In this document: positions 5,729 through 27,265 of the stretch, in pieces | Position numbering within the stretch: the stretch's first letter is position 1 | Layout: each line of letters opens with the position of its first letter | Origin: Christensenellaceae bacterium | GTDB lineage: Bacteria > Bacillota > Clostridia > Christensenellales > Aristaeellaceae | Length of the DNA: 36,658 nucleotides | Assembly: GCA_012797085.1 (NCBI GenBank) | Contig: JAAZPT010000365.1 | Coordinates: 1-36,658 of the forward strand | Reading direction: 5' to 3' | The notes under the pieces: model-generated | The model's input: the letters and a program-made list of their open reading frames with translations, nothing else | Databases searched by the model: none | What the model was told of the DNA's origin: nothing | Made by a program: the position numbers and the translations under genes

Positions 5729-5767
5729 AAAACTAACTAGTAACTTTTTCATAATAAACCTATTAAA

Positions 5768-5804
5768 AGTCGTGGTCGGCTTAAAGGCCGACTGCGGCTT
5801 TTTA
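5768..5804 (+). terminator. Rho-independent terminator after the 5'-nucleotidase gene
   Basis: GC-rich imperfect hairpin (core GTCGGC ttaaag GCCGAC with extra flanking pairs) followed by TTTTT. It lies about 40 nt after the stop at 5728. Confidence 0.6.
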
Positions 5805-5891
5805 TAAGCCCATGAATGCAATCAGGCTTATTATTAACAATTTTTTAAGTATCGGCATTTGAATATTGATTATGTAATATTGTTAAAATAA

Positions 5892-5927
5892 TAAAAAAAC
5901 AGCTTAGTGATAAATATTCACCAAGCT
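5892..5927 (-). terminator. Rho-independent terminator ending the his operon
   Basis: The minus strand reads AGCTTGGTGA atattta TCACTAAGCT GTTTTTTTATT, a 10-bp stem with one G-U pair followed by a T-run. It lies about 25 nt after the hisK stop. Confidence 0.65.
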
Positions 5928-5950
5928 ATTATATGACATAGAAGTTCAGC

Positions 5951-7419: not shown

Positions 7420-7420
7420 A

Positions 7421-8892: not shown

Positions 8893-8893
8893 A

Positions 8894-10095: not shown

Positions 10096-10096
10096 A

Positions 10097-11155: not shown

Positions 11156-11163
11156 AATTCTCC

Positions 11164-12441
11164 TTATTTGTTCAACCTTATCTGTACAGAGTTTGCGTGG
11201 GCATACAAGCCCTCATGCTCGGCAAAATTAACTATCCTGTCGCCAACTTCCTTAAGGGCCTCATCGGAATAATATATGAATGAGGATCTCTTTTGAAAAT
11301 CATAAACGCCCAAGGGCGACGAAAACCTTGCCGTACCGTTTGTTGGCAATGTATGGTTGGGCCCTGCAAAATAATCGCCTAAGGCCTCGGGAACATTCCT
11401 GCCAAGGAATATGCTGCCCGCATTTTTAATTGCATTTAAGTACCTGAAAGGCTCATCAACACATATTTCAAGATGCTCCGGAGCAATCATGTTGGATATT
11501 TCAATAGCCTTATCTATGCTGTCGGCTATTATAATTTTGCCATAATTATCTATGGAAACACGGCAAATATCGCGCCTTGGCGCTGCTTCTATCTGCACTT
11601 CAAGCTCCTGCTGAACAGCCTTTGCTAAAGCCTCGCTGTTTGTAATAAGTATGGCTTGGGCAAGCCTGTCATGCTCCGCTTGGGAAAGCATATCCGCAGC
11701 TACATAGCTCGGATTACAATTTTCATCAGCAATTACAAGTATCTCGGAGGGGCCTGCCACCATATCTATATCGACTATGCCGAAAACTCGACGTTTAGCT
11801 GCTGCCACATAGGCATTGCCCGGCCCTACTATTTTATCAACAGGGGTGATGCTTTCCGTACCGTATGTAAGGGCTGCAACAGCTTGAGCACCGCCAACTT
11901 TGTATATGATATCGACCCCGGCTATGCTTGCCGCTACAAGTATGGGTGCCGCAATGCTTCCGTCCTTTGAGGGCGGTGTGGTAATGCAAATGTTTTTAAC
12001 CCCCGCAAGCTTTGCAGGTATTGCATTCATAAGCACGCTGGAAGGGTAGCTTGCCGTACCGCCCGGAACATATAGGCCAACCCTGGCAATCGGAGTAATC
12101 TTTTGACCCAAAACTATGCCGTTATCCTGGTTGATAATATAATCGTTTTCACATTGGGCGGCATGGAATTTTTTAATGCGTTCCGCCGCCATTTTCATAG
12201 TATCAATCAAATAGGGGTCCGTTATGCTGAGGGCATGGTCAATTTCATCCTTGCTAACTGTAAGGCTTTGCAGCTTTACCCCGTCAAATTTTTCCGTATA
12301 AGCTAAAAGAGCAGCATCGCCGTTAGTTTTTACATCATCCAAAATAGCCTGAACAGTGGTTTCAATGGCGCTGTTGTCGCTTATACTCCTTGATAATATA
12401 TCTTCCTTTTCTAAGCTATCGGCATAGTATATTTTTATCAT
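11164..12441 (-). CDS. hisD: Histidinol dehydrogenase
   Basis: LSQAEHD, IAPEHLEI, GDYFAGPNHTLPT. 425 aa. Overlaps hisG by 4 nt. Confidence 0.93.
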   Translation of the reverse strand: MIKIYYADSLEKEDILSRSISDNSAIETTVQAILDDVKTNGDAALLAYTEKFDGVKLQSLTVSKDEIDHALSITDPYLIDTMKMAAERIKKFHAAQCENDYIINQDNGIVLGQKITPIARVGLYVPGGTASYPSSVLMNAIPAKLAGVKNICITTPPSKDGSIAAPILVAASIAGVDIIYKVGGAQAVAALTYGTESITPVDKIVGPGNAYVAAAKRRVFGIVDIDMVAGPSEILVIADENCNPSYVAADMLSQAEHDRLAQAILITNSEALAKAVQQELEVQIEAAPRRDICRVSIDNYGKIIIADSIDKAIEISNMIAPEHLEICVDEPFRYLNAIKNAGSIFLGRNVPEALGDYFAGPNHTLPTNGTARFSSPLGVYDFQKRSSFIYYSDEALKEVGDRIVNFAEHEGLYAHANSVQIRLNK

Positions 12442-13058
12442 TTATTGTAAGCCTCCATAAGTTTTACAAGCAAATCGTTAATTTGTTTTTCTTTAAATTT
12501 ATAGGCCGCCTTATTGGCAATAAGCCTTGCGCTGGAATAGGCAATAGTTTCCACTACCTCTAAATTGTTTTCCTCAAGGGTTTTACCCGTTTCAACAATA
12601 TCCACAATAACATCGCTAAGGCCTAATATGGGCGCCAACTCTATTGAGCCGTTAAGTTTTATAATTTCTATATCTCTGTTTTTTGTTCTGTAATGGTTTT
12701 TTGCTACATTGGGGTATTTTGTTGCAACCCTTAATATATTGTTGGGGTTTTCATAATAGTTTACAGGGGCAGCCACAGCAAGCCTGCATTTGCCCAATTG
12801 CAAATCCATAAGTTCATACACATTGGGGTTTGTTTCCAATATAACATCCTTGCCAACAACGCCTATATCGGCGGCACCATGTTCAACATAAATTCCAACA
12901 TCGGAGGGTTTTATAAGCAGGTAACGAACTTCGCTTTCCAGGCTTTCAACAACGAGGCGTCTATCCTCACCCAAGCCTTCACAGTAATAACCGAAGGACG
13001 AAAACAGCTTATATACATCATCACCAAGTCTACCCTTCGGTAATGCTATATTTAACAT
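12438..13058 (-). CDS. hisG: ATP phosphoribosyltransferase, short form
   Basis: MLNIALPKGRL start and SDVGIYVEHGAADIGVVGKD. Only 206 aa, so it lacks the C-terminal regulatory domain, consistent with the adjacent hisZ. Confidence 0.92.
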   Translation of the reverse strand: MLNIALPKGRLGDDVYKLFSSFGYYCEGLGEDRRLVVESLESEVRYLLIKPSDVGIYVEHGAADIGVVGKDVILETNPNVYELMDLQLGKCRLAVAAPVNYYENPNNILRVATKYPNVAKNHYRTKNRDIEIIKLNGSIELAPILGLSDVIVDIVETGKTLEENNLEVVETIAYSSARLIANKAAYKFKEKQINDLLVKLMEAYNK

Positions 13059-14173
13059 TTGCCCACCTCCTTAAGTTCACCGTCTACAATAGTATAGTAG
13101 ATTCTTGCTTGTATATTATCGGCTCTGTCCCCTGTAAGTACTGATTTGCCTTCCCTTACAAGGCTTTGAACAAAATTGTTCAGCTCAATGGGGTTGTTTT
13201 GTCCGCTGCAACAAATGAAGGCATCGTATACTTTTGGCTTATACTCGGCAATTAGTCTTGCTATTTCATCAAAGCGAAGGGCAAAGCCTATGGCTCCCGT
13301 ATCCTTTTTATGCATATGCTTAAGCAGGTTATCATAACGTCCACCAATAAGCACAGCGCCCGGTATGCCTTCTATATAGCCGCTTAACACAAGGGAGTTG
13401 TAATAATTCATATCACCTATTATAGAAAAATCAAGCCTTAAATTGTTCAGCTCTTTTTTACCCTCAAAGGATTTTATTATCAGCTTAATTTCATCAAGAG
13501 CCAAGCGCATTTCATCGTTTACGGCAAGTTCATAGGCCTTATCTATGCAGTCAACAGCCTTGCCTGTAATATCAATAAGGCTTAGGAGCATATTTATACC
13601 CTCATCATTCAAGCCAAGCTGTTTAGCCTTTATGCTAAGCTCATGCCTGTTTTTTTCCTCTATGGATATTAATATATCCTTTTTAGTTTTATCATCCATG
13701 TTGAAGTAGTCAAGCAAGCCGTTTACAAAGCCCAAATGGGATATATCAAGCATCCAATTGTTTGATATGGCCGCCAAGCTTTGGGCAGCAAGGTTGGATA
13801 TTTCCACAAGGCTGTAATTGTTTACCTTGCCCAGCCATTCCAAGCCTATTTGGGAAATTTCTTTATAATCCCCCGTACCGGGCATAGTTCTGTAAACCTT
13901 TTCCGCATAGTAAATTTTTTCGGCAATATCGCCCTCACAGTTGGCATTTTTAACTATGCTAAGGGTTACATCAGGCTTTAGCACCATAAGCTTGCCATCG
14001 GTATCGTTAAATGTAATAAACTGCCCCTTAGGCAAAAAGCTTTTATACTTCGTATAAAAATCATACTCCTCAAAGCGCGACATTTTAAAACGATTATAAC
14101 CAAACTGTTCATACAGATTGCCTAAATATATGCTTAGTTGTTCCTCTCGGGGCAATGTATTTATATTAAACAT
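13052..14173 (-). CDS. hisZ: ATP phosphoribosyltransferase regulatory subunit (HisRS paralogue)
   Basis: Class-II aaRS-like core (LKPDVTLS, GGRYDNLL) without an anticodon-binding domain. 373 aa. It is the first gene of the operon, with GGAGGGA before the ATG. Confidence 0.88.
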   Translation of the reverse strand: MFNINTLPREEQLSIYLGNLYEQFGYNRFKMSRFEEYDFYTKYKSFLPKGQFITFNDTDGKLMVLKPDVTLSIVKNANCEGDIAEKIYYAEKVYRTMPGTGDYKEISQIGLEWLGKVNNYSLVEISNLAAQSLAAISNNWMLDISHLGFVNGLLDYFNMDDKTKKDILISIEEKNRHELSIKAKQLGLNDEGINMLLSLIDITGKAVDCIDKAYELAVNDEMRLALDEIKLIIKSFEGKKELNNLRLDFSIIGDMNYYNSLVLSGYIEGIPGAVLIGGRYDNLLKHMHKKDTGAIGFALRFDEIARLIAEYKPKVYDAFICCSGQNNPIELNNFVQSLVREGKSVLTGDRADNIQARIYYTIVDGELKEVGKC

Positions 14174-14202
14174 TATACTCCCTCCTATAAAATAATAAGG
14201 AT

Positions 14203-14231
14203 ATAATATAACAGAGTTTCGCTTTTGTCAA
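14203..14231 (-). promoter_or_regulatory. Candidate sigma-A promoter of the his operon
   Basis: The minus strand reads TTGACA, a 17-nt spacer, then TATTAT. The -10 lies about 30 nt upstream of the hisZ ATG. This is a sequence match only. Confidence 0.5.
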
Positions 14232-14332
14232 GTAAAGTGATAAAGCGTTAAAGTAAATATTTTAATTTACCTTATTATTTTATATGTATTTTTATGCAAG
14301 GTCAATTATAATAATGTTTTTTGACGGTTTAC

Positions 14333-14361
14333 TTGCAGAAAAATATCTAAAGTGATATATT
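14333..14361 (+). promoter_or_regulatory. Candidate sigma-A promoter (extended -10) for the methyltransferase gene
   Basis: TTGCAG, a 17-nt spacer ending in TGa, then TATATT. It is divergent from the his promoter and lies about 37 nt before the ATG at 14398. Confidence 0.45.
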
Positions 14362-14397
14362 AAATTTTTAATAAACATAATAAGGAAAGAGATAAAT

Positions 14398-15186
14398 ATG
14401 CCTACAAGAATTGACATAATAAATGATTTATACAATCAAATAGATGAAGACAGCAGACTGCAAAATTCCAGACAAGGTCAGTTGGAATACATAGTAACTA
14501 TGAATTATATTCATCGCTATATTACACAGCAATCAAAAGTGCTTGAACTGGGAGCCGGTACTGGCAGGTACTCTATCGCCCTTGCAAAGGAAGGCATGGA
14601 TGTAAGCGCCGTGGAGCTGGTGGAAAGCAACCTTGCGGTATTAAGGGAAAACAGCAAGGATATTGAAAATATAAAATCCTATAAAGGTGATGCAACGAAC
14701 CTTGATTTTCTAGGCGACAATTTATTTGACGTAACCTTGGTTTTTGGCCCCCTTTATCATCTATATGAGCCGGAAGATGTTCATAAAGCCATTGATGAAG
14801 CAATTAGGGTTACAAAACCGAGCGGTGTTATTCTATTTGCCTTTATTTCCATTTTTGGCATAATGTATACAAATTTCTTTAAAGGTAATTGGGCTTTCGG
14901 GCAAAAGTTGAATTTTACCGATAACTACAAAATAAGGCACTTTAAAGAGCAGTTATTCACAGGATATGATATTGTTGAATTTGAAAGCTTATTTGAAGAT
15001 AAACCCGTTGAGTGGATTACTACTACCGGCACTGACGGTTTGTTGGAAGCTATTGAAGCTCGACCCGATTTCGCCATATCCGATGAGGACTTTAAAGCCT
15101 TTACAGATTGGTATATGATATTTTCGGAAAAGCGAGAGCTTTTAGGAAGTACGAATCATCTATTATATATATGCCGTAAGAAATGA
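14398..15186 (+). CDS. Class I SAM-dependent methyltransferase
   Basis: Motif I VLELGAGTGRYS, an acidic residue after beta-2 (VSAVE), and the post-I/II pattern GDATNL ... FDVTLVFGPLYH. Substrate cannot be inferred. Confidence 0.8.
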   Translation: MPTRIDIINDLYNQIDEDSRLQNSRQGQLEYIVTMNYIHRYITQQSKVLELGAGTGRYSIALAKEGMDVSAVELVESNLAVLRENSKDIENIKSYKGDATNLDFLGDNLFDVTLVFGPLYHLYEPEDVHKAIDEAIRVTKPSGVILFAFISIFGIMYTNFFKGNWAFGQKLNFTDNYKIRHFKEQLFTGYDIVEFESLFEDKPVEWITTTGTDGLLEAIEARPDFAISDEDFKAFTDWYMIFSEKRELLGSTNHLLYICRKK

Positions 15187-15311
15187 ATCAATTAAAGATT
15201 GGGCTTAAAAACACTTCAATAAAAATTAAAATTTAAAAAAATGTTCAAATAATATGAGTGATATTAATACTATAAAAATTTGTAATGTTCAAATATCGAA
15301 AGGATTGTAAT

Positions 15312-16109
15312 ATGGAACACAAATATATCGAATCCAAAAACGGAATTACCCATTATTGGGTTAAACACAATAAAAATGCTTCTGCCAAGTGTATTGTTTT
15401 TACACACGGATTAACAGCAAATCACTCCATGTTTGAAAAGCAAATAGAATACTTTTATTCAGACTACCATATTATTGCATGGGATGTTCCTTTGCATGGT
15501 CTTTCAAGGCCATATTTCAATTTTTCCTATAAACAGGCCTCTATAGAACTTCATAGTATTTTAGAAGTTGAAAACATAACAAAAACTATTTTAGTTGGTA
15601 TGTCAATGGGAGGTTATCCAAGCCAGATGTTCGCAGATATGTTTCCTGAAATGGTCGAAGGCTTTGTGGCAATTGATACAACCCCCTTTGGGTTAAAGTA
15701 TTATTCTAAATCAGACATGTGGTGGCTAAAGCAGGTTGAGCCTATAGTAAAATTGTTTCCCGACAGTTTACTTAGAACAAGCATGGCAAGGTCTGTTTCT
15801 AAAACGCAATATTCCTATAATAAAATGATGGAGATGTTAAAGCCACTAACAAAAGCACAAATAATAGAACAAATGGGAATTGGATATGGAAAATTTGTAT
15901 TAGAAAACAAAGATGTTGTATTTAACTTTCCTGTTCTTATATTGCTTGGGGATAGCGATAAAACAGGGAAGGTAAAAAAATACTGCAAAGATTGGTCAAA
16001 AAGCACAGGATATCCGCTTCACATAATTAAAAACGCTGCTCACTTTTCAAATGGGGACAATCCTGAACAAGTCAATGCAGAGATAGAATCCTTTATAAAA
16101 GGATTATAA
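15312..16109 (+). CDS. Alpha/beta-fold hydrolase
   Basis: Oxyanion-region VFTHGL, nucleophile elbow GMSMGG, C-terminal AAHFSN histidine. The ATG at 15312 has AAAGGA upstream and is preferred over 15285. Confidence 0.8.
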   Translation: MEHKYIESKNGITHYWVKHNKNASAKCIVFTHGLTANHSMFEKQIEYFYSDYHIIAWDVPLHGLSRPYFNFSYKQASIELHSILEVENITKTILVGMSMGGYPSQMFADMFPEMVEGFVAIDTTPFGLKYYSKSDMWWLKQVEPIVKLFPDSLLRTSMARSVSKTQYSYNKMMEMLKPLTKAQIIEQMGIGYGKFVLENKDVVFNFPVLILLGDSDKTGKVKKYCKDWSKSTGYPLHIIKNAAHFSNGDNPEQVNAEIESFIKGL

Positions 16110-16326
16110 GTTAGTTTATTTAATAATTGTTAAATTGATTAGCTCTGTTTTATCAATTAATTTTTATTGTTTACTATTAAATTATAAATGCAAGTTCCCT
16201 AAAATTATTGTTGATTTAGATAATGTTATTTTGTTTTATGATGTAATAATTTTGATAGATAGGTTTTAAAGCAGAAATCACCTATGATTTTTTAGCGAAG
16301 GAAGTAACAAAAATATCTTGTTACCC

Positions 16327-16436
16327 ATGAAAACGTCACACAGTATTTACATTTTGATCTCTACTCCGGATAGGACATAATACTAAAGGATAAAACTCAG
16401 TAAAGAATAAGATTTAATGCTTACACAAAGTATTAA
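16327..16436 (+). pseudogene. Possible decayed N-terminal fragment of a paralogue of the downstream C92-like gene
   Basis: A short ORF encodes MKTSHSIYILISTPDRT*, sharing IYILIS with the start MRKIYILISQTG of the 16548 gene but with different codons. Across a frameshift, LSKE then RIRFNAYTKY parallels LFSKGIRWYTKQPY. There are multiple stops and no continuation. Confidence 0.3.
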
Positions 16437-16437
16437 A

Positions 16438-16464
16438 TTGAAAATTTGCTATTAGTGATATAAT
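16438..16464 (+). promoter_or_regulatory. Candidate extended -10 promoter for the C92-like gene
   Basis: TTGAAA, a 15-nt spacer, then TGaTATAAT (perfect -10 with a TGn extension). It lies about 85 nt upstream of the ATG at 16548. The spacer is short, so the call leans on the extended -10. Confidence 0.35.
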
Positions 16465-16547
16465 ATATCAGAATACAAATTAAATATATAATTTGGTAAA
16501 AAATATTAGGCAGAAAGATATTAACAATATTAAAGTAAAAAAAAGAT

Positions 16548-17114
16548 ATGAGAAAGATATACATACTTATTTCACAAACCGGCTCGCTTTTTTCAAAAGG
16601 TATTAGATGGTATACAAAACAGCCCTATAATCACAGTTCCATAACCACGGATAAGCATTTTCCCGTTTTTTGGTCATTTGCAAGAAGGTGGCCAAGGCTT
16701 CCTTTTCCGGGAAGTTTTGTAAAAGAGGAATTTAACAAAGGGACATTTGCTTTGTTTCCCGATACCGATTGCGTTGTTTTAGCTTTTGAAATAGAAGATG
16801 AAAAAGCGAAAAAGGCGGATGCAATTTTGGATAAACATATAAATAGAAAAAAAAGGTACGGCTACAACTATTCAACAATTTTTTCCACCTTTTTGTTCCA
16901 CAAACCAACAATATCTAAACGCAAAAGAAGAACCTGTGCGGAATTTGTGGCGCTTGTTTTATCGGAAAGTGATATTCATTCCTTTGATAAACAGCTTCAA
17001 ATGGTTCACCCTATGGATATTTTTAATAATTTCAGCGAAAATATTATTTATAGAGGCAAAATGAGAGATATTAAAGAGAGCGACTTTTTACAACAAACAC
17101 CATTTAATCAATAA
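16548..17114 (+). CDS. Hypothetical protein, probably a permuted papain-fold (YiiX/YaeF, C92-like) amidase
   Basis: His-before-Cys order typical of permuted NlpC/P60 relatives: an early PYNHSSI and a late RRTCAEFVALV. 188 aa with no signal peptide. Assigned by pattern memory only. Confidence 0.45.
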   Translation: MRKIYILISQTGSLFSKGIRWYTKQPYNHSSITTDKHFPVFWSFARRWPRLPFPGSFVKEEFNKGTFALFPDTDCVVLAFEIEDEKAKKADAILDKHINRKKRYGYNYSTIFSTFLFHKPTISKRKRRTCAEFVALVLSESDIHSFDKQLQMVHPMDIFNNFSENIIYRGKMRDIKESDFLQQTPFNQ

Positions 17115-17165
17115 TAGCGGAAAGAAATATATAAACATAGGTTAGAAGAAAGGGGTCGACGGAAA

Positions 17166-18122
17166 ATGAATTACCAAAAACTATTGGAAATTAGCGATGA
17201 CTGGCTGAAATACGCTATCCGTCTTAACTTGGGACACGAACCTGAGAACGATCTTGTTGAAGCCAGAGATGCGGCCTTAGATGATGAACGAATAAAAAAA
17301 TATCTTTCTGACATTACAAACTTTCATGAAAGCCTTGTAACTAATCATAAAAACCCCGATTTACCTATACAAAAACTGCTGTTTCTGCTTGACCTGGGAT
17401 TTGATAAGGAGATCCCGGAAATTAAAACGGCAATTGATGAAATACTTAAACACCGTGACGAGAACGGCGTTTATCAATCCATGACAAATATACCCAAGCA
17501 TTTTGGCGGTACAGGTGAAGATGTATTCAGCTGGTGCTTATGTGATGCACCTTTGCTTTTGCTTGCTCTGCTAAAGGCTGGTGTGGATTATAGTAAATAT
17601 ATCAAACCCGGTGTTGACTACCTTGTATCCTTATGTCGTGATAACGGATTTCCTTGTGCTGTGTCGCCTGAGCTGGGCAAGTTTCGCGGACCGGGTAGAA
17701 AGGATGACTGTTGCCCCTATGCAACCCTCATCATGGCCGATTTACTGTCGTATATACCGGAATATAGGGATTCTCAAGTTGCCGTCTCCTCTGTAGAAGC
17801 CTTGCTGAACCTGTGGGAAAACAGCCTTAATCATCATCCTTATATGTTCTACATGGGCACTGATTTCCGTAAGTTGAAAGCACCATCTTGCTGGTATGAT
17901 ATTGTAAGCGTGGCCGGAATTCTTAGTAAATACGAGTTTGTGAAAAAGGATGCTCGTTTTATTGAAATGATTGAACATATAAAAAGCAAACAAGATAAGG
18001 ACGGCCTTTTTACACCTGAATCAGCATACCAAAAATTAAAGGGCTGGGATTTTGGTCAAAAGAAAGAACCGTCTCCTTATTTAACATACCTTTGCTATCA
18101 AATTCTTGAACGTTTGAAATAG
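17166..18122 (+). CDS. Hypothetical Cys-rich helical-repeat protein (weak prenyltransferase/terpene-cyclase-like alpha-alpha toroid resemblance)
   Basis: Intact 318-aa ORF with an AAAGGGG RBS. Repeated motifs HRDENGVYQS and KQDKDGLFTPES, plus Cys clusters SWCLCDAP and DDCCPYATL. The coding call is solid but the family is uncertain. Confidence 0.55.
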   Translation: MNYQKLLEISDDWLKYAIRLNLGHEPENDLVEARDAALDDERIKKYLSDITNFHESLVTNHKNPDLPIQKLLFLLDLGFDKEIPEIKTAIDEILKHRDENGVYQSMTNIPKHFGGTGEDVFSWCLCDAPLLLLALLKAGVDYSKYIKPGVDYLVSLCRDNGFPCAVSPELGKFRGPGRKDDCCPYATLIMADLLSYIPEYRDSQVAVSSVEALLNLWENSLNHHPYMFYMGTDFRKLKAPSCWYDIVSVAGILSKYEFVKKDARFIEMIEHIKSKQDKDGLFTPESAYQKLKGWDFGQKKEPSPYLTYLCYQILERLK

Positions 18123-18149
18123 AATATAAAAACCATTTGTTTTTATATT
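18123..18149 (+). terminator. AT-rich perfect hairpin immediately after the stop at 18122 (possible weak terminator)
   Basis: AATATAAAAAC cattt GTTTTTATATT, an 11-bp perfect stem. The 3' arm is itself U-rich, and the sequence that follows is A-rich. Confidence 0.4.
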
Positions 18150-18222
18150 CAAAAATAATTTTAATTTTTTTAAACTGTCTCATTGCATGGGTTAAATAAA
18201 GTCATTACACTTATATTAGGAG

Positions 18223-18711
18223 GTGGTAAAAATGGCTAATGAAGATAAAAAAGATTTTAATGCCATGTTGCATGATAGCAAGGATATGCCAAAATTTAAA
18301 ATCATAACAGATGAACCAAGTATTGAAAAATACGGTGGAAGCAAAATGTATTTCGCTCCACCAATTGACTATGACAAAGTTATGAGAATGATTCCCTTTG
18401 GAAAAGTTATTACTGTGGGCAAAATTCGCGAATATTTTGCCAATAAATCCGGTGGAGATTTTACAGAGCCGATTACAGCAGGTGTTTTTGTGTCTATTGC
18501 TGCATGGGCAAGTCACCAAAGAACAGATGACAAGACTCCCTATTGGAGAACATTGAAAGCAAATGGAGAACTAAACGAAAAATACCCCGGTGGTGCAGCG
18601 GCACAAAAAGAGAAATTGGAAGCTGAAGGTCATACAATAATTCAAAAGGGCAGGAAAAACATCACATACTATGTTAAGGATTATGAGCATGTTCTATTTG
18701 ACTTAAACTAA
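18223..18711 (+). CDS. MGMT-family DNA-binding protein lacking the acceptor cysteine (alkyltransferase-like, ATL-type)
   Basis: AGGAGG RBS. The winged-helix segment IPFGKVITVGKIREYF is followed by PYWRTLKANGEL where O6-alkylguanine transferases carry PCHRV. Confidence 0.6.
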   Translation: MVKMANEDKKDFNAMLHDSKDMPKFKIITDEPSIEKYGGSKMYFAPPIDYDKVMRMIPFGKVITVGKIREYFANKSGGDFTEPITAGVFVSIAAWASHQRTDDKTPYWRTLKANGELNEKYPGGAAAQKEKLEAEGHTIIQKGRKNITYYVKDYEHVLFDLN

Positions 18712-18734
18712 ATTTCAATTAGATATAGTATAAA

Positions 18735-18769
18735 TTAAAGACCTCTTGTATTAAACAATAGGTCTTTAA
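18735..18769. terminator. Bidirectional-looking hairpin between the ATL-like gene and the addA-derived repeat
   Basis: TTAAAGACCT, a 15-nt loop, then AGGTCTTTAA (10-bp perfect stem). The flanking T-tracts on either strand are short, so termination efficiency is unknown. Confidence 0.4.
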
Positions 18770-18778
18770 TAAAATATT

Positions 18779-18854
18779 ATAATCCTTACACCCTCAAAGC
18801 CTCGCTGTAATACAGGCTATAAATATAACATTCAGCCACGTTGAAAGGGCTTAA
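18779..18854. repeat. Direct repeat copy A (76 bp), a detached duplicate of the addA 3' end
   Basis: 73/76 identical to 21201..21276. On the minus strand it reads LSPFNVAECYIYSLYYSEALRV* plus 7 nt, but it is not joined to any upstream reading frame. Confidence 0.95.
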
Positions 18855-18906
18855 CTACTTACATCGCTTAAAAAAACCTTTTTTGCTTTATTATACTTTT
18901 TTATTT

Positions 18907-20697
18907 TTATCTGTTTACCGAATAATCCAAAATAGGCATTTGAGATACTATTGATTCATCGATTTTTTTTACAGTCAAATTAATTTCTTCAAAGTTTTGA
19001 TATCGAATTAAATAATCATACTCAATACCACTACTGTCTTTCTCATACTCCAATTTCAATTCCTTATTTGGTGCAATATCCTGTTCAACAACAATATATT
19101 TTTTTAATATGTTTATATCACTTGCATCTACAAACGTTCCATCTTCCGCAGTAAAAATAATTCTTAATTCCCCAGCACCATATTCATCAATACGTTTTCC
19201 TATTTGTGCTTTACCAAACGACGCAGCATTTCGTCCAACATAATCTTTTACATGATATATATGCCGATCCAGTGTAGGAAGCAGTTCAGTAATAGTTGGA
19301 ACATACGAAGTTGTGCCTATAGGCGCCACATACAACAAGATTTCATCATAACTCTGATAATCAACCAAATAACTATATGGCTTTCCATTACTATCACGCT
19401 GATTCACAATAGTTAAATTTTTACCAACAGGTATACTCTGTTCTACAACAGTATACTGCTTTTTGAATTCATCATCATTTAGTGGAATAATCATTCCGGA
19501 TTCTGTAACAAAAATAATATTTAACTCTCCAGCACCATATTGATCAGTCTGGGTTCCAATCCAGTATTTTCCAATTGAGGCAACATTTTTCCCTATGTAA
19601 TTTCTGACTTTGTAGCTATATATGCCCTCACTATTATTCGTTACTGAACTAACATCAATGGTAGGGCTCACAGGATTAACAACTTGTTTGGGAATATTGA
19701 TATATCCATTTCTGTATACAATTAACATCAATGCAACACAAATTAAAGCAACAACAAATGACCCCCAACTTAATGGTGTCTTAATATTTCCCCCTTTTTT
19801 TATATTTATGAACATTCTAATAAGAATAATTCCACTACAAATAATATCAACCAGCAAAATAAGGTTATATATATTTACACCGTAATTATTAGAGTTTTTT
19901 TCGTTAAGGGAAATCAAAATAACAATACTTAATCCCAATCCAAATAAAGTTATAAGTTTTGGCAGGTGTGATTCACATCTTAATGCAAATGGAATTAATA
20001 TTGCTCCTATCACAAAATCAATCAAAATAAATAATTGATAACTCATTGCGTTAGCGTTACCAAGACTTTCATCACATAAAGGCATCAACGCAAAAATGCT
20101 TATTAACCATCCTGTAACTACTATAACATTAATCAATACAGACATCAATTCTGAAATGAAGTTTCTTACATTCTTGCCCTTTTCAACTTTCTTTTTCTTA
20201 TTTAACTTAGAACAAACTTGTGTGTAAATTTTTTGAATACGCAAAAATTCTTTTTTATTTTCTAAAATAATCTCTGCTTTTTCATATGCTTGTTCAATTT
20301 TTGTCTGCCATGCAACAGAAAGATCGCTTTCAAGATTTCTACCAACATTTGTAGAAGCAAGAATCATAAATTCCAAAATATCCTCTTTTGTATTGGGAAT
20401 TGGAAAATTTCTAATGATTGTTACTTTTTTTTGATGATTTTCAGCTTCAGCTAATTTTTCAGCAAATTCTTTAACTGCATAAGAATTTGATACACCTCTT
20501 ACCTCATAACCACAAGATGAACAGTGCGATACAAACGAGCCTAATGTGTCACCACAATTTGGGCATTTATAAATATTACCTTCAAATACAGATTTTCTTT
20601 GATTGATTATTTTTTCACTTGAAACCGCTGTTCCACATGATGTACAGTACTTTGATCCATTTTGAATTTTATATCCGCAATTTGTACAAAACGGCAT
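18907..20697 (-). CDS. Zinc-ribbon / multi-pass membrane protein with two tandem extracytoplasmic repeat domains of about 100 aa (function unknown)
   Basis: Two N-terminal CxxC...CxxC ribbons (CTNCG..CTSCG; CPNCG..CSSCG), a helical cytoplasmic segment, about 5 hydrophobic spans, then the duplicated C-terminal module. GGAGG-type RBS (AGGGAGGAAAA) before the ATG at 20697. Confidence 0.8.
   Translation of the reverse strand: MPFCTNCGYKIQNGSKYCTSCGTAVSSEKIINQRKSVFEGNIYKCPNCGDTLGSFVSHCSSCGYEVRGVSNSYAVKEFAEKLAEAENHQKKVTIIRNFPIPNTKEDILEFMILASTNVGRNLESDLSVAWQTKIEQAYEKAEIILENKKEFLRIQKIYTQVCSKLNKKKKVEKGKNVRNFISELMSVLINVIVVTGWLISIFALMPLCDESLGNANAMSYQLFILIDFVIGAILIPFALRCESHLPKLITLFGLGLSIVILISLNEKNSNNYGVNIYNLILLVDIICSGIILIRMFINIKKGGNIKTPLSWGSFVVALICVALMLIVYRNGYINIPKQVVNPVSPTIDVSSVTNNSEGIYSYKVRNYIGKNVASIGKYWIGTQTDQYGAGELNIIFVTESGMIIPLNDDEFKKQYTVVEQSIPVGKNLTIVNQRDSNGKPYSYLVDYQSYDEILLYVAPIGTTSYVPTITELLPTLDRHIYHVKDYVGRNAASFGKAQIGKRIDEYGAGELRIIFTAEDGTFVDASDINILKKYIVVEQDIAPNKELKLEYEKDSSGIEYDYLIRYQNFEEINLTVKKIDESIVSQMPILDYSVNR
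18958..19626 (-). repeat. Internal tandem duplication within the zinc-ribbon protein gene
   Basis: aa 358-461 (IYSYKVRNYIGKNVASIGK..DQYGAGELNIIFVTESG..YTVVEQSIP..) aligns with aa 479-580 (HIYHVKDYVGRNAASFGK..DEYGAGELRIIFTAEDG..YIVVEQDIA..). The two copies are colinear at the protein level but diverged at the DNA level. Confidence 0.8.
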
Positions 20698-21200
20698 TGA
20701 CGATTTTCCTCCCTTTACTCTTTATAATCTTTTCAGCATCGCAATATCACCAATGTTGAAATCCAAACACTCATAAATTCATAATAGTACAGAAAGCATC
20801 ACTTAATTATTATGTCTAATTTTAATCAGCGTTCCATTAGAAATACTCAAATATTTTTTTAAAAAAAAGATTTCCTTTCCAATAATTAGTATCCATTACT
20901 TCTTATTACTAATCTAATGTTGCCCTCTCCCTATAATATTATTTTGTATATTATATCCAAATTTTGCTAAGTCATCAATATATTTGTCACAAACTGTCAT
21001 TAAATTCTTCAATTTATTGCGAATTATTATAAACACATTGATTTATAAATAATAAAATTTCGAGAAATAATAATTTGCATATTGTCAAATATTTTATAAA
21101 TACTTTAAAGTTTTATTTTTCCTTTTATTATTAAATAGTTTATATAATTACATAATTGAAATAAAGTTATGTTCAAATTCTGATTTCTGATATATGTTTA

Positions 21201-21276
21201 ATAATCCTTACACCCTCAAAGCCTCGCTATAATACAGGCTATAAATATAACATTCGGCCACGTTGAAGGGGCTTAA
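21201..21276. repeat. Direct repeat copy B (76 bp): the last 22 codons plus stop of addA, plus 7 nt downstream
   Basis: Pairs with 18779..18854 at a period of 2422 bp. The three mismatches (21229, 21256, 21268) all fall on third codon positions of addA and are synonymous. Confidence 0.95.
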
Positions 21277-24200
21277 TTTTTCCAAGGCTAAGCGGTACAT
21301 ATTCATCTGTTGAAGATAGTTTTCCTGCAAGCCTTCTGCTGTTTTAGATTTGTCGGTTTTAAAATCTACAATTATCCATTTTTCATTTTCAATAAAGCAT
21401 AAGTCTATAACGCCTTGCATTAGGGATGTAGCCCAACCCTTAAGGTGTAGAGTAAATGGTTTTTCCCTGTACACAACATGGCTGTTTAACATTCGCAGGC
21501 CTAAGGGGCTTAAAAAGAACTTGGCTATGGATAAAACATCAACCTTATTATAAAGCTCCTCATCAAAGTGACCCATATTTAACAGTTTATCAAGGGCTTC
21601 AAGCACAACATTATAAAGCTGTGCGGCTAAATTGTTAGAGGAAAAGTCCTTATTGTTTAGAGCCTTTTGAGCCTCTTCGATTTGGCTTTGTGTATATTTG
21701 CTAAGGCTTTGACTTTGGGGCTTTTTACCCGCCTCACTTAACTTTTCATCGGGATCTATGTCGCTGCCCCCTGAGCCTAATATTGCCCTAACTTTGCCAA
21801 TATCCAAATTTTCAAACACAGTATGGCTAGCCGAGCCTATTTGTGCAGCGCTGAGGGGCTTTGTTTCCATCATAAAATCCGGCATTCTCTTGGCATATTT
21901 TATAGATTTTGGCCTGTACTTGGGCAATAGTCTTGGAGCCGGCAAATCCATAGGGGCATCTGTAATATAGCCCTCATAAACAGGCTCATCCTTTAGGCTT
22001 TGTACTATAGTAGTAACCGTGGTTTTAAGGGGGATATGATCATACTGTTTTGTTACAAGGCCTTGATTTACAAAATCCGTTGAGCTTTCCAGTTGAATTG
22101 TTGGCGTATCATCCGGCAGTTGCACTGCTTTAATATCCTCCAAAATATCGAAAAAGCTTTTATTTTTAGCATTAAAACTACTATCAATATCTTCAATTGT
22201 TATAAAGCTGTCATCACAATAAAGAAGATTAATATTCCAATGTTTGAATGTACCGTTATCAAGCATTTCACTTATATTTTTATATTCAAAGGCATTTTCA
22301 TAACAGCTGTCATCATATTGGGGAATATTTTCTTCCCTTAAGCAAAGTGCGTCATTATCCTTATAGACAGCTTGGCAAACCCAATCCGCCATGCTTTTTG
22401 CCCTTTTAACCGCTAAGCTTTTATTGTTTATATCCCAAAATTTGCTGTAGTTTTTACTTTCCTTAAAGGCCGTGCTTAAATGCAGAGCCTCTCTTGCCCT
22501 TGTCATGGCAACATATAAAAGCCTTGCCCTTTCAGCCTGCAGCTCCTTTTGTTTAACTAGGTTTATAATGGTTTGGGGCAATGTTTTGCGCTTTATATAA
22601 AGCTCGCTGTTTATATACTCCAAGGCAACACCAAGCTTTGAATGTATAAAAATTCCTGTTCCGCCACGGGAAGCAATATCCTTTTCCAAGCCTATTACAA
22701 ACACATAGGGAAATTCCAAGCCCTTGCTTTTATGTATTGTCATAATGCGAACAAGGTCATCCTTGGGGCTTAACAGTACGGGGCTAAGGGAGTCCCCCGA
22801 TTTTTGTAAAGAGCGACAATCTTCAATAAAGTCCTCTAAGTTGCCCTCCCTCTCCTCTTGAAACTTCTTTGCTCTTACACATATGCTTCTTAAATTATCC
22901 GCATATTTTTCGCCCTCTTTAAATGTAGCAAAAAAGCTGAATAACCCACTGCGTTGATAAAAGTTCCATATATATTTATCAAAGAGCATATTTTGACATA
23001 AAAAGCGTTCTTGACTGAGTATTCGCCTAATATCGGCACATAGGCAAAACAAGTTAAAATCCTTTTGACTTATGCCCACATCCTTAGCTGCCTCTGTAAG
23101 TTCAGCATTTTGACTTTGATATTTATTCGCCTCACTAAATAACAGTAGTTTGTTGCCAAAGCTCCAAGGCACATCTACTTTAAAGCCTAAAATATCATCG
23201 CTGAAGCTTTCTTCAATCTCTATTATTTTTTGTTCATCATCTATAATATCATAAACCCCTTCCGATGAAACATCATATTGGGCATAGTTTTGCTCGTTTT
23301 CCTCAAATGTTGGAGCATCTAAAAGGGCATCTGCGCTATCTGCGCAAGAGTAAAAAGCCTGACTGAAGCTAACGTCCCTATCGGGGTGCATCAGCCTTAT
23401 TTGCGCTAAAGTTTCCTCGGTTAAAGCAAATATCGGGCCTCTAAGCACTGCAATTAAAGATATATCGTCAAGGGGATGAGTTAAAAGTGTAAGCCAGGAC
23501 AGTACTTGCTCCGTTTCTATGGATATTTCTTCCGTTGTTGCCACATCGGCATAGAGGGGAATATTCTCCTCCTCAAACACCTTGCGAATTTTATCCTCAA
23601 CACCCTTCATTTGGGAGCAGAGTATAACAATATCCCTGTACATTAGGGGTTTGCCTGTACTTAATATGGTTTTACCGATCATTTGCTTTATTTGCTTTGT
23701 TACAAAATTAGCTTGAAGCTCTATATTATCTAAATCTTCCACCCTGTTTTCAAGTACGCTGAGGGAAACAGGTACGGCTTCTTTATCTTCCCTGCCGGCA
23801 ACAAGCCAATCCTCATCAGGCAAATAGTTAAGCTCCGTAATATCCTCTTGCATTACATGGCTGAAAACCCTGTTTACACCGTCAAGCACCAAGGGGGTGG
23901 ATCTGAAGTTTTTGTTTAATAATATTTTACGCTTGCTAAAGGCTTCATCGCTTTTTTCATAAGGATAGCTTTTCATTTTTTCCATAAACAAAGTAGGCTC
24001 GGCCTGCCTGAAGCGATATATGCTTTGCTTTACATCGCCAACCATAAACAATTTGTTTGAGGCGCTGTGCAGCTTATTTAAAATTTCTTCCTGTATGGAT
24101 GAGTTATCTTGGCATTCATCTATGAAAATAGCATCAAAGGCTGAGGATACCCTTTCGGCAATGCCTTCGGTATTAAGTATTTCAAGGGCAAATTGCTCCA

Positions 24201-25296
24201 TATCGTTAAAGTCTATGGTGTTTACCTTGTTTTTAATTTTTCTGAAAATATTGTGGAATACTATTGTAATTTGAGCCAAGCCTCGTAAGTTTATAAGCAT
24301 TTGCTCATTGTCCTTAGGGGCTTTTTTTATCATTGCGCTACGGGTTGCAATATCCTTAATTTCATCCTTAAGGCCCTGCCTTGATTCTGTAATCAAGCTT
24401 TTATATTTATCAATTAAATCCTCACCATATAGTTCTTTATCAGCCTTTTTTGCCGATGGCAGATTTTTAAACTTAATTGTTTCTATGGCATCAAAAAGAG
24501 CAACATCCTTATTTAAAGCCATTTGATAACAGCCATATATGGAATCTTTATCATTATTGCCAACTTCTTTATATATATCCGGGCAGTATATATCGCTGCA
24601 AATATTGCAAGTTTCCTCAGCAACAATATATGCATCAACAAAATCTTCAAAAATGTTGTTATAAAAGCTGTTATAAACTTCCTTGTATATTTCCGCCTCG
24701 CTTATGTTATAGTTTGCAGTATTGTCATCATTTAAGCCTGTTTTTGCCCTAAGCCAATCAAGGGGATAAGGCAAGCTCATCATTGTTGTATAAAGCTCAC
24801 GAAGCATTTCCATTATTTGATTTTCGTTATAACAGGCAATAAGGCTTTCCATCTCTAAAGTGGGATTATCATAGCAAAAATCCAATGTATCCTCTAATGC
24901 GGCATCATATAGTTTATCCCTCAATGAAGTAGGGCAAACCCTGACGCGAGGGTCCACATCAACCACTTGAAACTGGCTGCGTACAAGGCTGCCGCAAAAG
25001 CTGTGGAGTGTTTCTATATGAGCAAAGGCAACATTATCAAGCTGTTTTTGCAAGCTTGAATCCTCAAGGGCAAGGTCAAAAAGCTGTTTGGATATACGCT
25101 CCTTAAGCTCCGACGCGGCGGCATGGGTAAAAGTCAATATAAGCATGCGCCTAATATCTATTTTATCCTCCACAAGCATACGCATAATTCTTTGCACTAA
25201 AACGGATGTTTTACCCGCTCCTGCAGCAGCACTTACAAGCAATGTATGGGAATTATCTGTAATAGCATCAAGCTGTTGCGGTGTATATTTTGCCAA
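21208..25296 (-). CDS. addA: AddA/RexA-type ATP-dependent helicase-nuclease (UvrD-like helicase plus C-terminal PD-(D/E)XK nuclease)
   Basis: Walker A AAAGAGKTS, motif II FIDECQDNS, NFRSTP, IHKSKGLEFPYVFV, YVAMTRAREAL. Nuclease motifs GVIDLCF..IVDFKTDK and QQMNMYRLAL. Apparent TTG start with AAGGGGG 7 nt upstream. Confidence 0.88.
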   Translation of the reverse strand: MAKYTPQQLDAITDNSHTLLVSAAAGAGKTSVLVQRIMRMLVEDKIDIRRMLILTFTHAAASELKERISKQLFDLALEDSSLQKQLDNVAFAHIETLHSFCGSLVRSQFQVVDVDPRVRVCPTSLRDKLYDAALEDTLDFCYDNPTLEMESLIACYNENQIMEMLRELYTTMMSLPYPLDWLRAKTGLNDDNTANYNISEAEIYKEVYNSFYNNIFEDFVDAYIVAEETCNICSDIYCPDIYKEVGNNDKDSIYGCYQMALNKDVALFDAIETIKFKNLPSAKKADKELYGEDLIDKYKSLITESRQGLKDEIKDIATRSAMIKKAPKDNEQMLINLRGLAQITIVFHNIFRKIKNKVNTIDFNDMEQFALEILNTEGIAERVSSAFDAIFIDECQDNSSIQEEILNKLHSASNKLFMVGDVKQSIYRFRQAEPTLFMEKMKSYPYEKSDEAFSKRKILLNKNFRSTPLVLDGVNRVFSHVMQEDITELNYLPDEDWLVAGREDKEAVPVSLSVLENRVEDLDNIELQANFVTKQIKQMIGKTILSTGKPLMYRDIVILCSQMKGVEDKIRKVFEEENIPLYADVATTEEISIETEQVLSWLTLLTHPLDDISLIAVLRGPIFALTEETLAQIRLMHPDRDVSFSQAFYSCADSADALLDAPTFEENEQNYAQYDVSSEGVYDIIDDEQKIIEIEESFSDDILGFKVDVPWSFGNKLLLFSEANKYQSQNAELTEAAKDVGISQKDFNLFCLCADIRRILSQERFLCQNMLFDKYIWNFYQRSGLFSFFATFKEGEKYADNLRSICVRAKKFQEEREGNLEDFIEDCRSLQKSGDSLSPVLLSPKDDLVRIMTIHKSKGLEFPYVFVIGLEKDIASRGGTGIFIHSKLGVALEYINSELYIKRKTLPQTIINLVKQKELQAERARLLYVAMTRAREALHLSTAFKESKNYSKFWDINNKSLAVKRAKSMADWVCQAVYKDNDALCLREENIPQYDDSCYENAFEYKNISEMLDNGTFKHWNINLLYCDDSFITIEDIDSSFNAKNKSFFDILEDIKAVQLPDDTPTIQLESSTDFVNQGLVTKQYDHIPLKTTVTTIVQSLKDEPVYEGYITDAPMDLPAPRLLPKYRPKSIKYAKRMPDFMMETKPLSAAQIGSASHTVFENLDIGKVRAILGSGGSDIDPDEKLSEAGKKPQSQSLSKYTQSQIEEAQKALNNKDFSSNNLAAQLYNVVLEALDKLLNMGHFDEELYNKVDVLSIAKFFLSPLGLRMLNSHVVYREKPFTLHLKGWATSLMQGVIDLCFIENEKWIIVDFKTDKSKTAEGLQENYLQQMNMYRLALEKLSPFNVAECYIYSLYYSEALRV

Positions 25297-25413
25297 AATA
25301 TTGCCCCCTTTTATTTACATAGATATATTATAATACATATTAACACAATTTTCATTCAAATAAAAAACCTTGAATCAACAAGGCTTTTTATATATTTTAA
25401 ATTATCACTTTTA

Positions 25414-25441
25414 CAAAAAACACAGTGCAATACACTGTGTC
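25414..25441 (-). terminator. Rho-independent terminator after the acyl-CoA synthetase gene
   Basis: The minus strand reads ACACAGTG tattg CACTGTGT TTTTTG, 7 nt after the stop. A second, weaker hairpin plus T-run follows at about 25362-25389 (GCCTTG ttgatt CAAGG TTTTTTATTT). Confidence 0.65.
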
Positions 25442-25447
25442 TGAATA

Positions 25448-27097
25448 TTAGTTTTTATCGCCATAGGCTAATGTTTCTTTAGCTACTAAGCCTACTACTC
25501 CATATTTTTCACGGAGTTTGGGTTTTTCTATTTTACCGGTGGGGTTGCGGGGAACCTTATCAAATATTACCTGGCGTGGGCGTTTATACTTGGGCAATTC
25601 CAAACAGAATTCGTTAAACTCTTCCTCGCTCATGGTTTCGCCATCCTTAAGCTCAACTATGGCTGTGGCAATTTCGCCAACCCGTTTATCAGGTGTGCCT
25701 ATAACGGCGGAATCCTTTATTTTAGAGTTTTTACGAAGAAAATCCTCTATTTGAACGGGATAAATATTTTCACCGCCGGATATTATAACGTCCTTCTTTC
25801 TATCAACAAGGAAAATAAAGTCATCTTCATCTTTAATGGCCATGTCGCCGGTGTATAGCCAGCCATTGCGAAGCACTTCATTTGTTGCCTCTTCATTTTT
25901 ATAATAGCAGGTCATAAGCCCCGGCCCTTTTACAATAAGCTCGCCGGCCTCATTTACGCCAACTTCATTATCCTTTTCATCAACTATTTTGGCCTCCCAG
26001 TTATAGCCGGGCTTGCCTATAGCACCAACCTTATGAATGTTTTCTATGCCAAGGTGCACACAACCTGGCCCAATAGACTCGGAGAGGCCATAGTTGGTAT
26101 CATAATCATGATTTGGGAAATATTGTTTCCAACGCTGTATCAAGCTTGGTGGAACGGGTTGTGCCCCTATATGCATAAGCCTCCAACGGGAAAGGTCATA
26201 ATCTTCCAATTTAACTTCTCCACTTTCAATGGCATCAAGTATATCCTGTGCCCATGGTACAAGCAGCCAAACTATTGAAACCTTTTCATCGGAAACGGTT
26301 CTAAGAACCCACTCAGGACTTACACCCCTGAGCAATATAGCCTTGCTTCCACTTAAAAGGGAGCCGAACCAGTGCATTTTTGCCCCTGTATGATAAAGGG
26401 GAGGGATACAAAGAAACACATCATCACGCTTTTGCATATGATGCTTTTGCTCTGTAATACAGGCGGAAACAAGGGAAGTATGTTTATGCAATATAGCCTT
26501 TGGAAAACCTGTTGTACCGGATGAAAAATATATTGCCGCATAATCCTCTTCATCAATTTCAACAGGGGGTGTCGTTGATGAACAAAAACAAATATAATCC
26601 TCAAGGGGTTCTGCAAAGCGGGGTAGATCGTTACCTTCATAAAAAATAGTATTAACAAAGCCTAATTTTGAATGAATCTGCTCTATACGGCCAATAAATT
26701 CCGGACCCATTACAAGGCAGCTTGCATCAGCCAATTTTAAGCAATATAAAATTTCCTCGGATGTATATCTATAGTTCATTGGTACAACAATGCAGCCTGC
26801 CTTAAGTATTCCAAAATAAATCGGCAACCATTCCAGGCAGTTCATAAGCAAAATTGCAACCTTATCGCCCTTTTTAAAGCCCCTTGTTTTTAGCAAGTTG
26901 GCAAACTTACAAGCCTTTACATCAAATTCTTTCCAGCTCATTTCCCGGCGATATTTACCACCGGTTGCTGCCTCAATAAGGTTATACTCACGCCAAGTTA
27001 CGGATTTTGAAGGTTGTAATGCAGGGTTAACCTCCACTAAAGCAATTTCATCAGGCAAAATTCTTGCATTTTTTTCTAAAAAATCTGTAATAATCAT
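25448..27097 (-). CDS. AMP-forming acyl-CoA synthetase / fatty-acid--CoA ligase family (ANL superfamily)
   Basis: AMP-binding motif YFSSGTTGFPKA, then YGLSE, TGDMAIKDEDDFIFLVDRKKDVIISGGENIYP, and the C-terminal catalytic Lys context GKIEKPKLRE. Substrate cannot be inferred. Confidence 0.88.
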   Translation of the reverse strand: MIITDFLEKNARILPDEIALVEVNPALQPSKSVTWREYNLIEAATGGKYRREMSWKEFDVKACKFANLLKTRGFKKGDKVAILLMNCLEWLPIYFGILKAGCIVVPMNYRYTSEEILYCLKLADASCLVMGPEFIGRIEQIHSKLGFVNTIFYEGNDLPRFAEPLEDYICFCSSTTPPVEIDEEDYAAIYFSSGTTGFPKAILHKHTSLVSACITEQKHHMQKRDDVFLCIPPLYHTGAKMHWFGSLLSGSKAILLRGVSPEWVLRTVSDEKVSIVWLLVPWAQDILDAIESGEVKLEDYDLSRWRLMHIGAQPVPPSLIQRWKQYFPNHDYDTNYGLSESIGPGCVHLGIENIHKVGAIGKPGYNWEAKIVDEKDNEVGVNEAGELIVKGPGLMTCYYKNEEATNEVLRNGWLYTGDMAIKDEDDFIFLVDRKKDVIISGGENIYPVQIEDFLRKNSKIKDSAVIGTPDKRVGEIATAIVELKDGETMSEEEFNEFCLELPKYKRPRQVIFDKVPRNPTGKIEKPKLREKYGVVGLVAKETLAYGDKN

Positions 27098-27126
27098 AAA
27101 TAATCTCCAAACTTAAGAATATTAAT

Positions 27127-27154
27127 ATTATACTCTTATTTTAATAAAATGCAA
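27127..27154 (-). promoter_or_regulatory. Candidate sigma-A promoter for the acyl-CoA synthetase gene
   Basis: The minus strand reads TTGCAT, a 16-nt spacer, then TATAAT (perfect -10). The -10 lies about 30 nt upstream of the ATG at 27097, with GGAGA as RBS. Confidence 0.5.
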
Positions 27155-27265
27155 GAATGGCCTATTTTAAACATAAGCTTACAGGCTTGTTTAAAAAATT
27201 AAAAAAATTTAGACAAAAAATAAACAAAGTTTTTAAGAGCCTGTATTGCCTTTAAAACAAGCAAA

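Follow-up and report, generated by a model that had tools for sequence, protein, structure and literature searches.

A 2.35-kb single-gene insert between duplicated addA ends in a Christensenellaceae bacterium, a candidate remnant of an integrative element

In a Christensenellaceae bacterium (Bacillota; Clostridia; Christensenellales; Aristaeellaceae), an AT-rich segment with one live gene, which encodes a zinc-ribbon membrane protein, lies between two near-identical copies of the 3' end of the repair gene addA. The DNA that we analysed, called the window here, is the whole 36,658-nt stretch of contig JAAZPT010000365.1 (assembly GCA_012797085.1), and the segment together with its flanking repeats occupies positions 18779 to 21276. 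With a probability that we put at roughly one half, the insert is a remnant of an integrative element, resembling a cis-mobilizable element (CIME), brought in through one crossover at the 3' end of addA. In kind it is an ordinary genomic scar, the stripped remnant of a known sort of element, and it leaves the current views on the formation of genomic islands unchanged. Its value lies elsewhere: it is a small and clean example of mobile cargo that was stripped down and kept by the host, where it has probably been joined to a repair gene's transcription unit; the interval between addA and the his operon is recognised as a variable spot in a poorly sampled lineage of Clostridia; and an uncharacterised, very widely shared three-gene module comes into view. 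This module, and the gap in age between a pseudogene within the insert and the repeats around it, are the most interesting loose ends.

The duplicated addA end

The two repeats, called copy A and copy B (Table 1), are each 76 nt long, lie 2422 nt apart and are identical at 73 of 76 positions (96%). In a repeat search they form the sole direct repeat of at least 40 nt in the window, and their exact runs of 28 and 26 nt compare with longest exact repeats of 14-19 nt when the window is shuffled 20 times. Copy B passes without a break into addA, and homology to the addA gene of the nearest relative reaches the stop codon within it. Directly upstream of copy A there is an in-frame TAG, so that copy A is not part of a longer open reading frame (ORF). 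The three sites at which the copies differ (21229, 21256 and 21268) are all third-codon-position transitions that leave Tyr (TAT/TAC), Ala (GCC/GCT) and Pro (CCC/CCT) unchanged, and both copies translate into LSPFNVAECYIYSLYYSEALRV followed by the stop. Beyond the repeat edges no further similarity was found at the DNA or the peptide level, and a third, older copy of the addA end, which would be a sign of element accretion, was looked for without success. An earlier model-made reading of this DNA from its letters and ORFs, called the sequence-only reading below, had described this repeat pair with the same length, identity and period, with copy B as 22 codons, the stop and 7 nt, and it had likewise reported the three synonymous differences and the abrupt loss of similarity at the edges; all these descriptions hold.

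The sequence-only reading had itself named an assembly artefact as a finding that would overturn it. A chimeric join or an expanded repeat would come easily to mind, as the contig was assembled from a metagenome and mis-joins typically occur at repeats. However, a Logan contig from ERR14964773 holds both repeats and the whole insert, with 6 single-nucleotide polymorphisms (SNPs) against the window in 18.2 kb and none of them in the insert, and a contig from SRR11032310 is 100% identical over 17896-19827, that is, across copy A into the insert gene. The same junctions thus occur in two other runs under a different assembly pipeline, one of them with SNPs elsewhere; in addition, the copies differ at three sites and the repeat is shorter than a normal read. 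An artefact is in our view extremely improbable, and we take the structure as real.

A congener provides a comparison without the insert. In a full-length protein search the closest relative of AddA (P0272, 78% identical) was found on an 83-kb NCBI contig of this congener, and apart from it the nearest full-length relatives are at most 39% identical, the next one (38% over the full length; 33% over the C-terminal 400 aa) not being syntenic. The congener locus (L090) is syntenic with the window in both flanks: the first consists of the MacB, AraC, CitMHS, fumarase, AMP-binding and addA genes, the second of hisZ, hisG, hisD and the remainder of the operon. Identity in blastn, at 77-82%, breaks off right at the addA stop codon (21208) and is found again at 14361, and the addA-his interval in between, 6846 bp in the window versus 1459 bp in the congener (14102-15560 of its locus), is non-homologous. 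There the interval holds a single convergent polysaccharide-deacetylase gene: the addA stop is followed by 9 nt, a hairpin with an 11-bp stem and the convergent gene, with neither a duplicated addA end nor a zinc-ribbon gene. In the window the corresponding layout, an addA end, 8 nt, a hairpin and a convergent gene, is met only at copy A; the congener shows that this order of addA end, hairpin and convergent gene is the usual arrangement. The hairpin of the window, with folding energies of -18.8 and -20.1 kcal/mol on the two strands (z -3.7 and -5.4), is probably the original bidirectional terminator of addA and of the convergent ATL-like gene. Its distance from copy A had been given as 10 nt by the sequence-only reading, the actual gap being the 8 nt above.

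The sequence-only reading had further proposed that incoming DNA brought its own addA end, and the geometry fits this well, with the orphan copy A standing beside the apparent original addA terminator. An empty site in related genomes, which was expected on that proposal, has been found in part: the congener has neither repeat nor cassette, but its flank differs from that of the window, so that it is not a strict empty site. A hotspot had also been raised as a point to test, and the addA-his interval, which differs between the two species, proves to be a variable spot of the chromosome. The part of the interval at 14362-18778, with genes for a methyltransferase and an alpha/beta hydrolase, two ORFs of 188 and 318 aa without Pfam match and the ATL-like gene, is likewise absent from the congener. 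No strict empty site and no other copy of the addA end was met in genome contigs scanned with the AddA C-terminus, in metagenome contigs scanned with an exact 23-mer of the addA end or in viral contigs scanned with a degenerate addA-end pattern, and searches of phage and plasmid DNA for addA-end copies gave nothing useful.

Regarding the history of copy A, three changes that are all synonymous have P = 0.006-0.03 if copy A drifted neutrally, and P = 0.02-0.09 under a fairer null in which the changes could also arise in the selected copy B. With the addA end of the congener as outgroup, the state of copy B is found at the two informative sites (Pro CCC and Tyr TAT), the Ala site being uninformative with a third state, GCA; the changes are therefore placed on the copy A lineage, which favours the stricter test. 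A coding past for copy A thus seems likely from the pattern of substitutions, and the claim of the sequence-only reading that both copies evolved as coding sequence obtains modest support, at three sites and with P values that depend on the null as stated. The 7 nt past the stop are common to both copies and not present in the congener, which indicates that the second copy came from the same species-level lineage.

A reduced three-gene module inside the insert

The insert has a G+C content of 28.8% (zinc-ribbon gene 30.9%; 20698-21200, 22.1%) against 38.8% in addA and 37.4% in the window. Low values are usual for the zinc-ribbon family on its elements, where they amount to 31-33% in loci of 36-41%. 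The gene encodes a protein of 596 aa with a predicted layout of an N-terminal cytoplasmic double zinc ribbon, a helical domain, a polytopic membrane region and two tandem extracellular beta domains. Its full-length homologues are 45-56% identical and belong to a large, modular family with a conserved N-terminal half and variable outer domains; all 26 family-invariant residues are kept. A frame of 596 codons that stays open in AT-rich DNA, together with the preservation of all invariant residues, argues that the gene is under selection. AlphaFold gives a pLDDT (predicted local distance difference test) of 80 for the whole protein and of 92 for the C-terminal domains. Known functions were not reached from it: there is no PADLOC match, the matches in NCBIfam and PHROG are at motif level only, a PDB sequence search found nothing beyond zinc ribbons, and Foldseek found no counterpart either to the complete protein or to its C-terminal domains, which are predicted with confidence. 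These domains comprise the C-terminal 252 aa (window 18910-19665) as two tandem beta domains of about 120 aa each (pLDDT 92; predicted template-modelling score 0.89), for which the best Foldseek hit in PDB has E 0.16, with template-modelling scores of at most 0.16; as modelled, they may represent an undescribed extracellular fold.

Upstream of this gene, the sequence-only reading had seen merely 503 bp of non-coding DNA next to a single gene. In fact the stretch holds a dead regulator gene of the HTH_26 family, a promoter-like site and a decayed putative operator. The regulator pseudogene has lost its start codon and has 4 in-frame stops and one 6-nt deletion. Three intact homologues agree with one another at 125 sites, and at 37 of these (29.6%) the pseudogene deviates; the even spread of these changes over codon positions indicates a long neutral decay. 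The promoter-like site aligns with the TTGAC..TATAAT of intact modules at three loci (L087, L088 and L004). The palindrome lies 103 nt upstream of the HTH start in the window; in other loci the consensus TCGCAA-N4-TTGCGA, with at most one mismatch, occurs in 38 of 57 at a median of 104.5 nt upstream of that start.

The two end pieces of the insert are less informative. For the 178-nt stretch on the addA side, no blastn match to any compared locus, no Rfam family and no stable fold at the addA-proximal end were found. In the 52-nt spacer on the copy A side, a DNA profile from 76 starts of SPFH genes gave no significant match to a remnant of an SPFH/GYF_2 gene; a four-sequence alignment had suggested that the spacer keeps the first codons of such a gene, and this idea was dropped after the profile null.

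The comparison with other genomes shows what these pieces belong to. In the three closest placed relatives the order is a 70-aa HTH_26 regulator, a zinc-ribbon protein and a 455-aa protein with SPFH/Band_7 and GYF_2 domains. We surveyed 80 species-representative GTDB loci (L007-L086): the SPFH/GYF_2 gene is directly downstream in 71 of them, and an HTH_26 gene, whose product is 69-93% identical to the query proteins, is upstream in 51. The hosts span distant families and even phyla, among them Lachnospiraceae, Erysipelotrichaceae and Muribaculaceae. Intact regulators are 81-85% identical to one another, with zinc-ribbon partners as low as 45-52%. The window agrees with this module of Bacillota in gene order, in the position of promoter and operator and in the zinc-ribbon family, and it departs from it in that the regulator is dead and the SPFH/GYF_2 partner absent; of the three genes only the zinc-ribbon gene is whole in the window. 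A literature search turned up no account of this module. Among named proteins the regulator comes nearest to VanU, which the 70-aa proteins match in NCBIfam at 2e-20, below cut-off, and the N-terminus of the zinc-ribbon protein, very weakly, to TcaA; as the named matches are far below family cut-offs, no function can be transferred to the module.

In the three closest placed relatives the module is found on mobile DNA. A block of at least 9.1 kb (5339-14421) is 99.9% identical in two metagenome-assembled genomes (L004 and L005) with different left flanks, and carries genes for a RES-domain protein, an HTH_26 regulator, a 140-aa ORF, a zinc-ribbon protein with leucine-rich repeats, an SPFH/GYF_2 protein and a large serine recombinase; it looks like a recently active integrative element. 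The module at another locus (L088) adjoins ParA, ParB and RepA_N genes just past a lysS-like gene, and that of a further close homologue adjoins an IS110 transposase. The best full-length zinc-ribbon homologue in GTDB (L007) has no flanking repeats. In Streptococcus sanguinis SK355R (L050, 5956-8056) a short zinc-ribbon gene and an SPFH/GYF_2 gene lie between mutS and mutL without an HTH_26 gene, apparently as a chromosomal and non-mobile version, so the pair is not always mobile. Among 2.9 million viral contigs only 3 distant relatives of the zinc-ribbon protein were found.

How the insert may have arisen

In the course of events that we favour, the source element would have carried the module with all three genes, for the VanU-like HTH_26 repressor, the zinc-ribbon membrane protein and the SPFH/GYF_2 partner. 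Incoming circular DNA, with a near-identical copy of the addA end on it, would have recombined with the chromosomal end in a single, Campbell-type crossover; this would have fused copy B to addA, keeping the gene intact, and would have displaced copy A by 2.4 kb, beside the old addA terminator. We infer a single crossover because no other simple route leads to direct repeats with allele-like differences. As the enzyme we prefer a site-specific recombinase whose gene lies elsewhere or has been lost, because the repeat spans the last codons to a few bases past the stop, which is a classical signature of such elements. Genes for integration and transfer, as well as the SPFH/GYF_2 gene, would once have been present and later lost; the interior now holds none of them, with the zinc-ribbon gene as the sole live gene, and that this gene alone was kept intact implies selection. 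At present it may be expressed from its own promoter, unrepressed, and/or by read-through from addA, with termination at the old addA terminator: as the repressor is dead and half of the operator decayed, the module promoter should be constitutively active, and there is no terminator between addA and the zinc-ribbon gene that would prevent read-through. The mobilisation, which the sequence-only reading had left unexplained, would then be best accounted for by the decay of a larger mobile element rather than by a new cassette without integrase.

A CIME is a decayed integrative and conjugative element (ICE) or integrative and mobilizable element (IME) that retains attL and attR (PMC5704250). The insert resembles it in being flanked by direct repeats, with the target gene's 3' end as one of them, in the lack of recombinase and transfer genes, in an interior homologous to cargo of integrative or conjugative elements and in a locus that is variable among relatives. 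It differs in its size of only 2.35 kb with one live gene, in repeats that are att-like by position only, and in an internal pseudogene much older than the repeat pair. As to the interior, the closest homologues belong to a module on mobile DNA, yet the zinc-ribbon/SPFH pair of S. sanguinis is chromosomal.

Elements that bring a replacement gene end are well known at the 3' ends of conserved genes, as in tRNA and tmRNA islands and in streptococcal ICEs at fda, lysS and rplL. Like integrative elements and prophages of this kind, the window has a duplicated segment that covers the last part of the gene, reaches slightly beyond the stop and leaves the gene intact, and one relative of the module lies after a lysS-like gene (L088); unlike them, the insert is far smaller, has no adjacent integrase and uses another target gene, addA not having been found in a literature search as a described integration target. 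With an integron cassette it has in common a small unit with a single promoter-dependent gene, but it has no attC-type imperfect palindrome, intI or attI, and its flanks are 76-bp direct repeats of a host gene end. A transposon or insertion sequence was rejected: there is no transposase, near the ends there is a single inverted pair, a 77% AT-rich match off the boundaries, and the duplication is 76 nt with 3 differences. A prophage remnant was rejected as well, the only PHROG match being the zinc-ribbon motif, with no phage DNA match of note and the few viral relatives mentioned above.

Several observations weigh against the decayed-element reading. The HTH_26 pseudogene has diverged by about 30% and the repeats by 3.9%, which is a misfit with simple decay in place; the gap implies that the fragment was probably already non-autonomous when the present repeats formed, and was transferred either in trans or through exchange between strains; gene conversion that homogenises the repeats would be the alternative. 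No integrase or cognate att site was seen, and neither an excised circle nor a strict empty site is at hand. In the closest mobile relative with a visible recombinase the enzyme is a large serine recombinase, a type that is not known to make 76-bp repeats. To keep both repeats, two deletions are needed, or one deletion ending exactly at a repeat edge, and the lost genes left no trace in the 52-nt and 178-nt end pieces. Further, only three differences bear on the coding history of copy A, and their polarisation by the outgroup is weak, since four-fold sites are identical in 49.6% and synonymous sites are about half saturated between the two species.

The insert might also have come without any dedicated recombinase, if an element or circle, on excising imprecisely from a sister strain, took the addA end with it, in the manner in which specialised transducing phages and F-prime factors pick up host DNA, and then integrated by a RecA-dependent single crossover. 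We regard this as a less likely but serious possibility. It agrees with the absence of an integrase from the window, with the 7 downstream nt that are not conserved in the congener and so point to a donor closely related to the species, with differences that resemble allelic, synonymous ones, and with a fragment that seems non-autonomous before the repeats formed; moreover, perfect runs of 28 and 26 nt come close to the least homology with which RecA is known to work. Nevertheless, efficient homologous integration would have only a very short stretch of 76 bp to rely on, the repeat edges are where site-specific elements that restore a gene end usually have them, and such short repeats would also favour loss, yet the insert is kept in three samples. 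The age gap could be explained in another way if the 2.4-kb unit were a still-mobile, non-autonomous mini-element, made of one selected gene and an att site at the addA end and moved in trans by a recombinase that targets the last 22 addA codons. If true, this would account for repeats about ten times younger than the dead regulator gene; we nonetheless hold it to be unlikely.

A foreign addA allele would not be needed at all if the 76-bp target had been duplicated de novo at the insertion, through staggered breaks or template switching, and had then drifted. Three differences are few, and with copy B selected and copy A neutral the chance of all-synonymous changes (P 0.02-0.09) is not negligible. 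However, both polarisable changes lie on the copy A lineage, where a neutral copy A would have P 0.006-0.03; target duplications made by transposases are far shorter than 76 bp; and the insert has neither terminal inverted repeats nor a transposase. A duplication of this sort is therefore quite improbable.

Feature coordinates and neighbouring genes

Table 1. Features of the window around the addA 3' end
Feature	Position	Strand	Description
Variable interval, addA stop to upstream region of the his operon	14362-21207		Methyltransferase, alpha/beta hydrolase, two ORFs without Pfam match, ATL-like gene, copy A, insert
ATL-like gene, 159 aa, convergent with addA	18232-18711	+	Weak match to PF01035 DNA_binding_1, E 8.7e-6, below cut-off
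Hairpin, probably original bidirectional terminator of addA and ATL-like gene	18734-18770		16-nt arms, 94% complementary
Copy A, orphan duplicate of addA 3' end, attR-like	18779-18854	-	22 codons, stop, 7 nt; 73/76 against copy B
Spacer between zinc-ribbon stop and copy A, 52 nt	18855-18906	-	No terminator; fold no better than shuffles
Zinc-ribbon membrane protein gene, intact, 596 aa	18907-20697	-	Pfam Zn_Ribbon_1, DZR
VanU-like HTH_26 repressor pseudogene	20722-20919	-	tblastn 52-58% identity, E about 1e-13
Promoter-like site TTGATG-17-TATAAT	20950-20978	-	Best sigma-70-type match in region, 10/12
Decayed putative operator palindrome TCGCAATAAATTGAAG	21007-21022	-	Consensus TCGCAA-N4-TTGCGA; 3 mismatches, all in one half-site
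178-nt stretch	21023-21200		About 19-24% G+C; no assignable homology
Copy B, functional addA 3' end, attL-like	21201-21276	-	Last 22 codons, stop (21208-21210), 7 nt; continuous with addA
addA, 1362 aa	21208-25296	-	Pfam UvrD-helicase, UvrD_C, PDDEXK_1

The long ORF of 1362 aa is, to judge from its UvrD-type helicase domains followed by a C-terminal PD-(D/E)XK nuclease domain, AddA, and many of its homologues carry this name. In line with the sequence-only reading, which had seen no integrase, transposase or relaxase by the repeats, none was found anywhere in the window, and there are no tRNA genes or Rfam families in it either. In the ATL-like protein, which is also present in exact form in SRR11032310, PYWR replaces the PCHR active site.

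A few minor observations concern addA and its upstream side. Of the 6 SNPs between the window and the ERR14964773 contig, three are clustered in 300 bp of addA (24656, 24762 and 24952), and two of these are non-synonymous (N214S and L179F); the cluster may mark a short tract of recombination or a variable patch. The addB gene is not adjacent to addA (window 21208-27097), whose upstream neighbour is a gene for an AMP-binding enzyme, and in the congener an extra Pirin gene (L090, 9062-9895) stands between these two. At 27060-27158 a 39-nt inverted repeat (74% complementary, with a spacer of 21 nt) overlaps with the beginning of the gene for the AMP-binding enzyme and may be regulatory.

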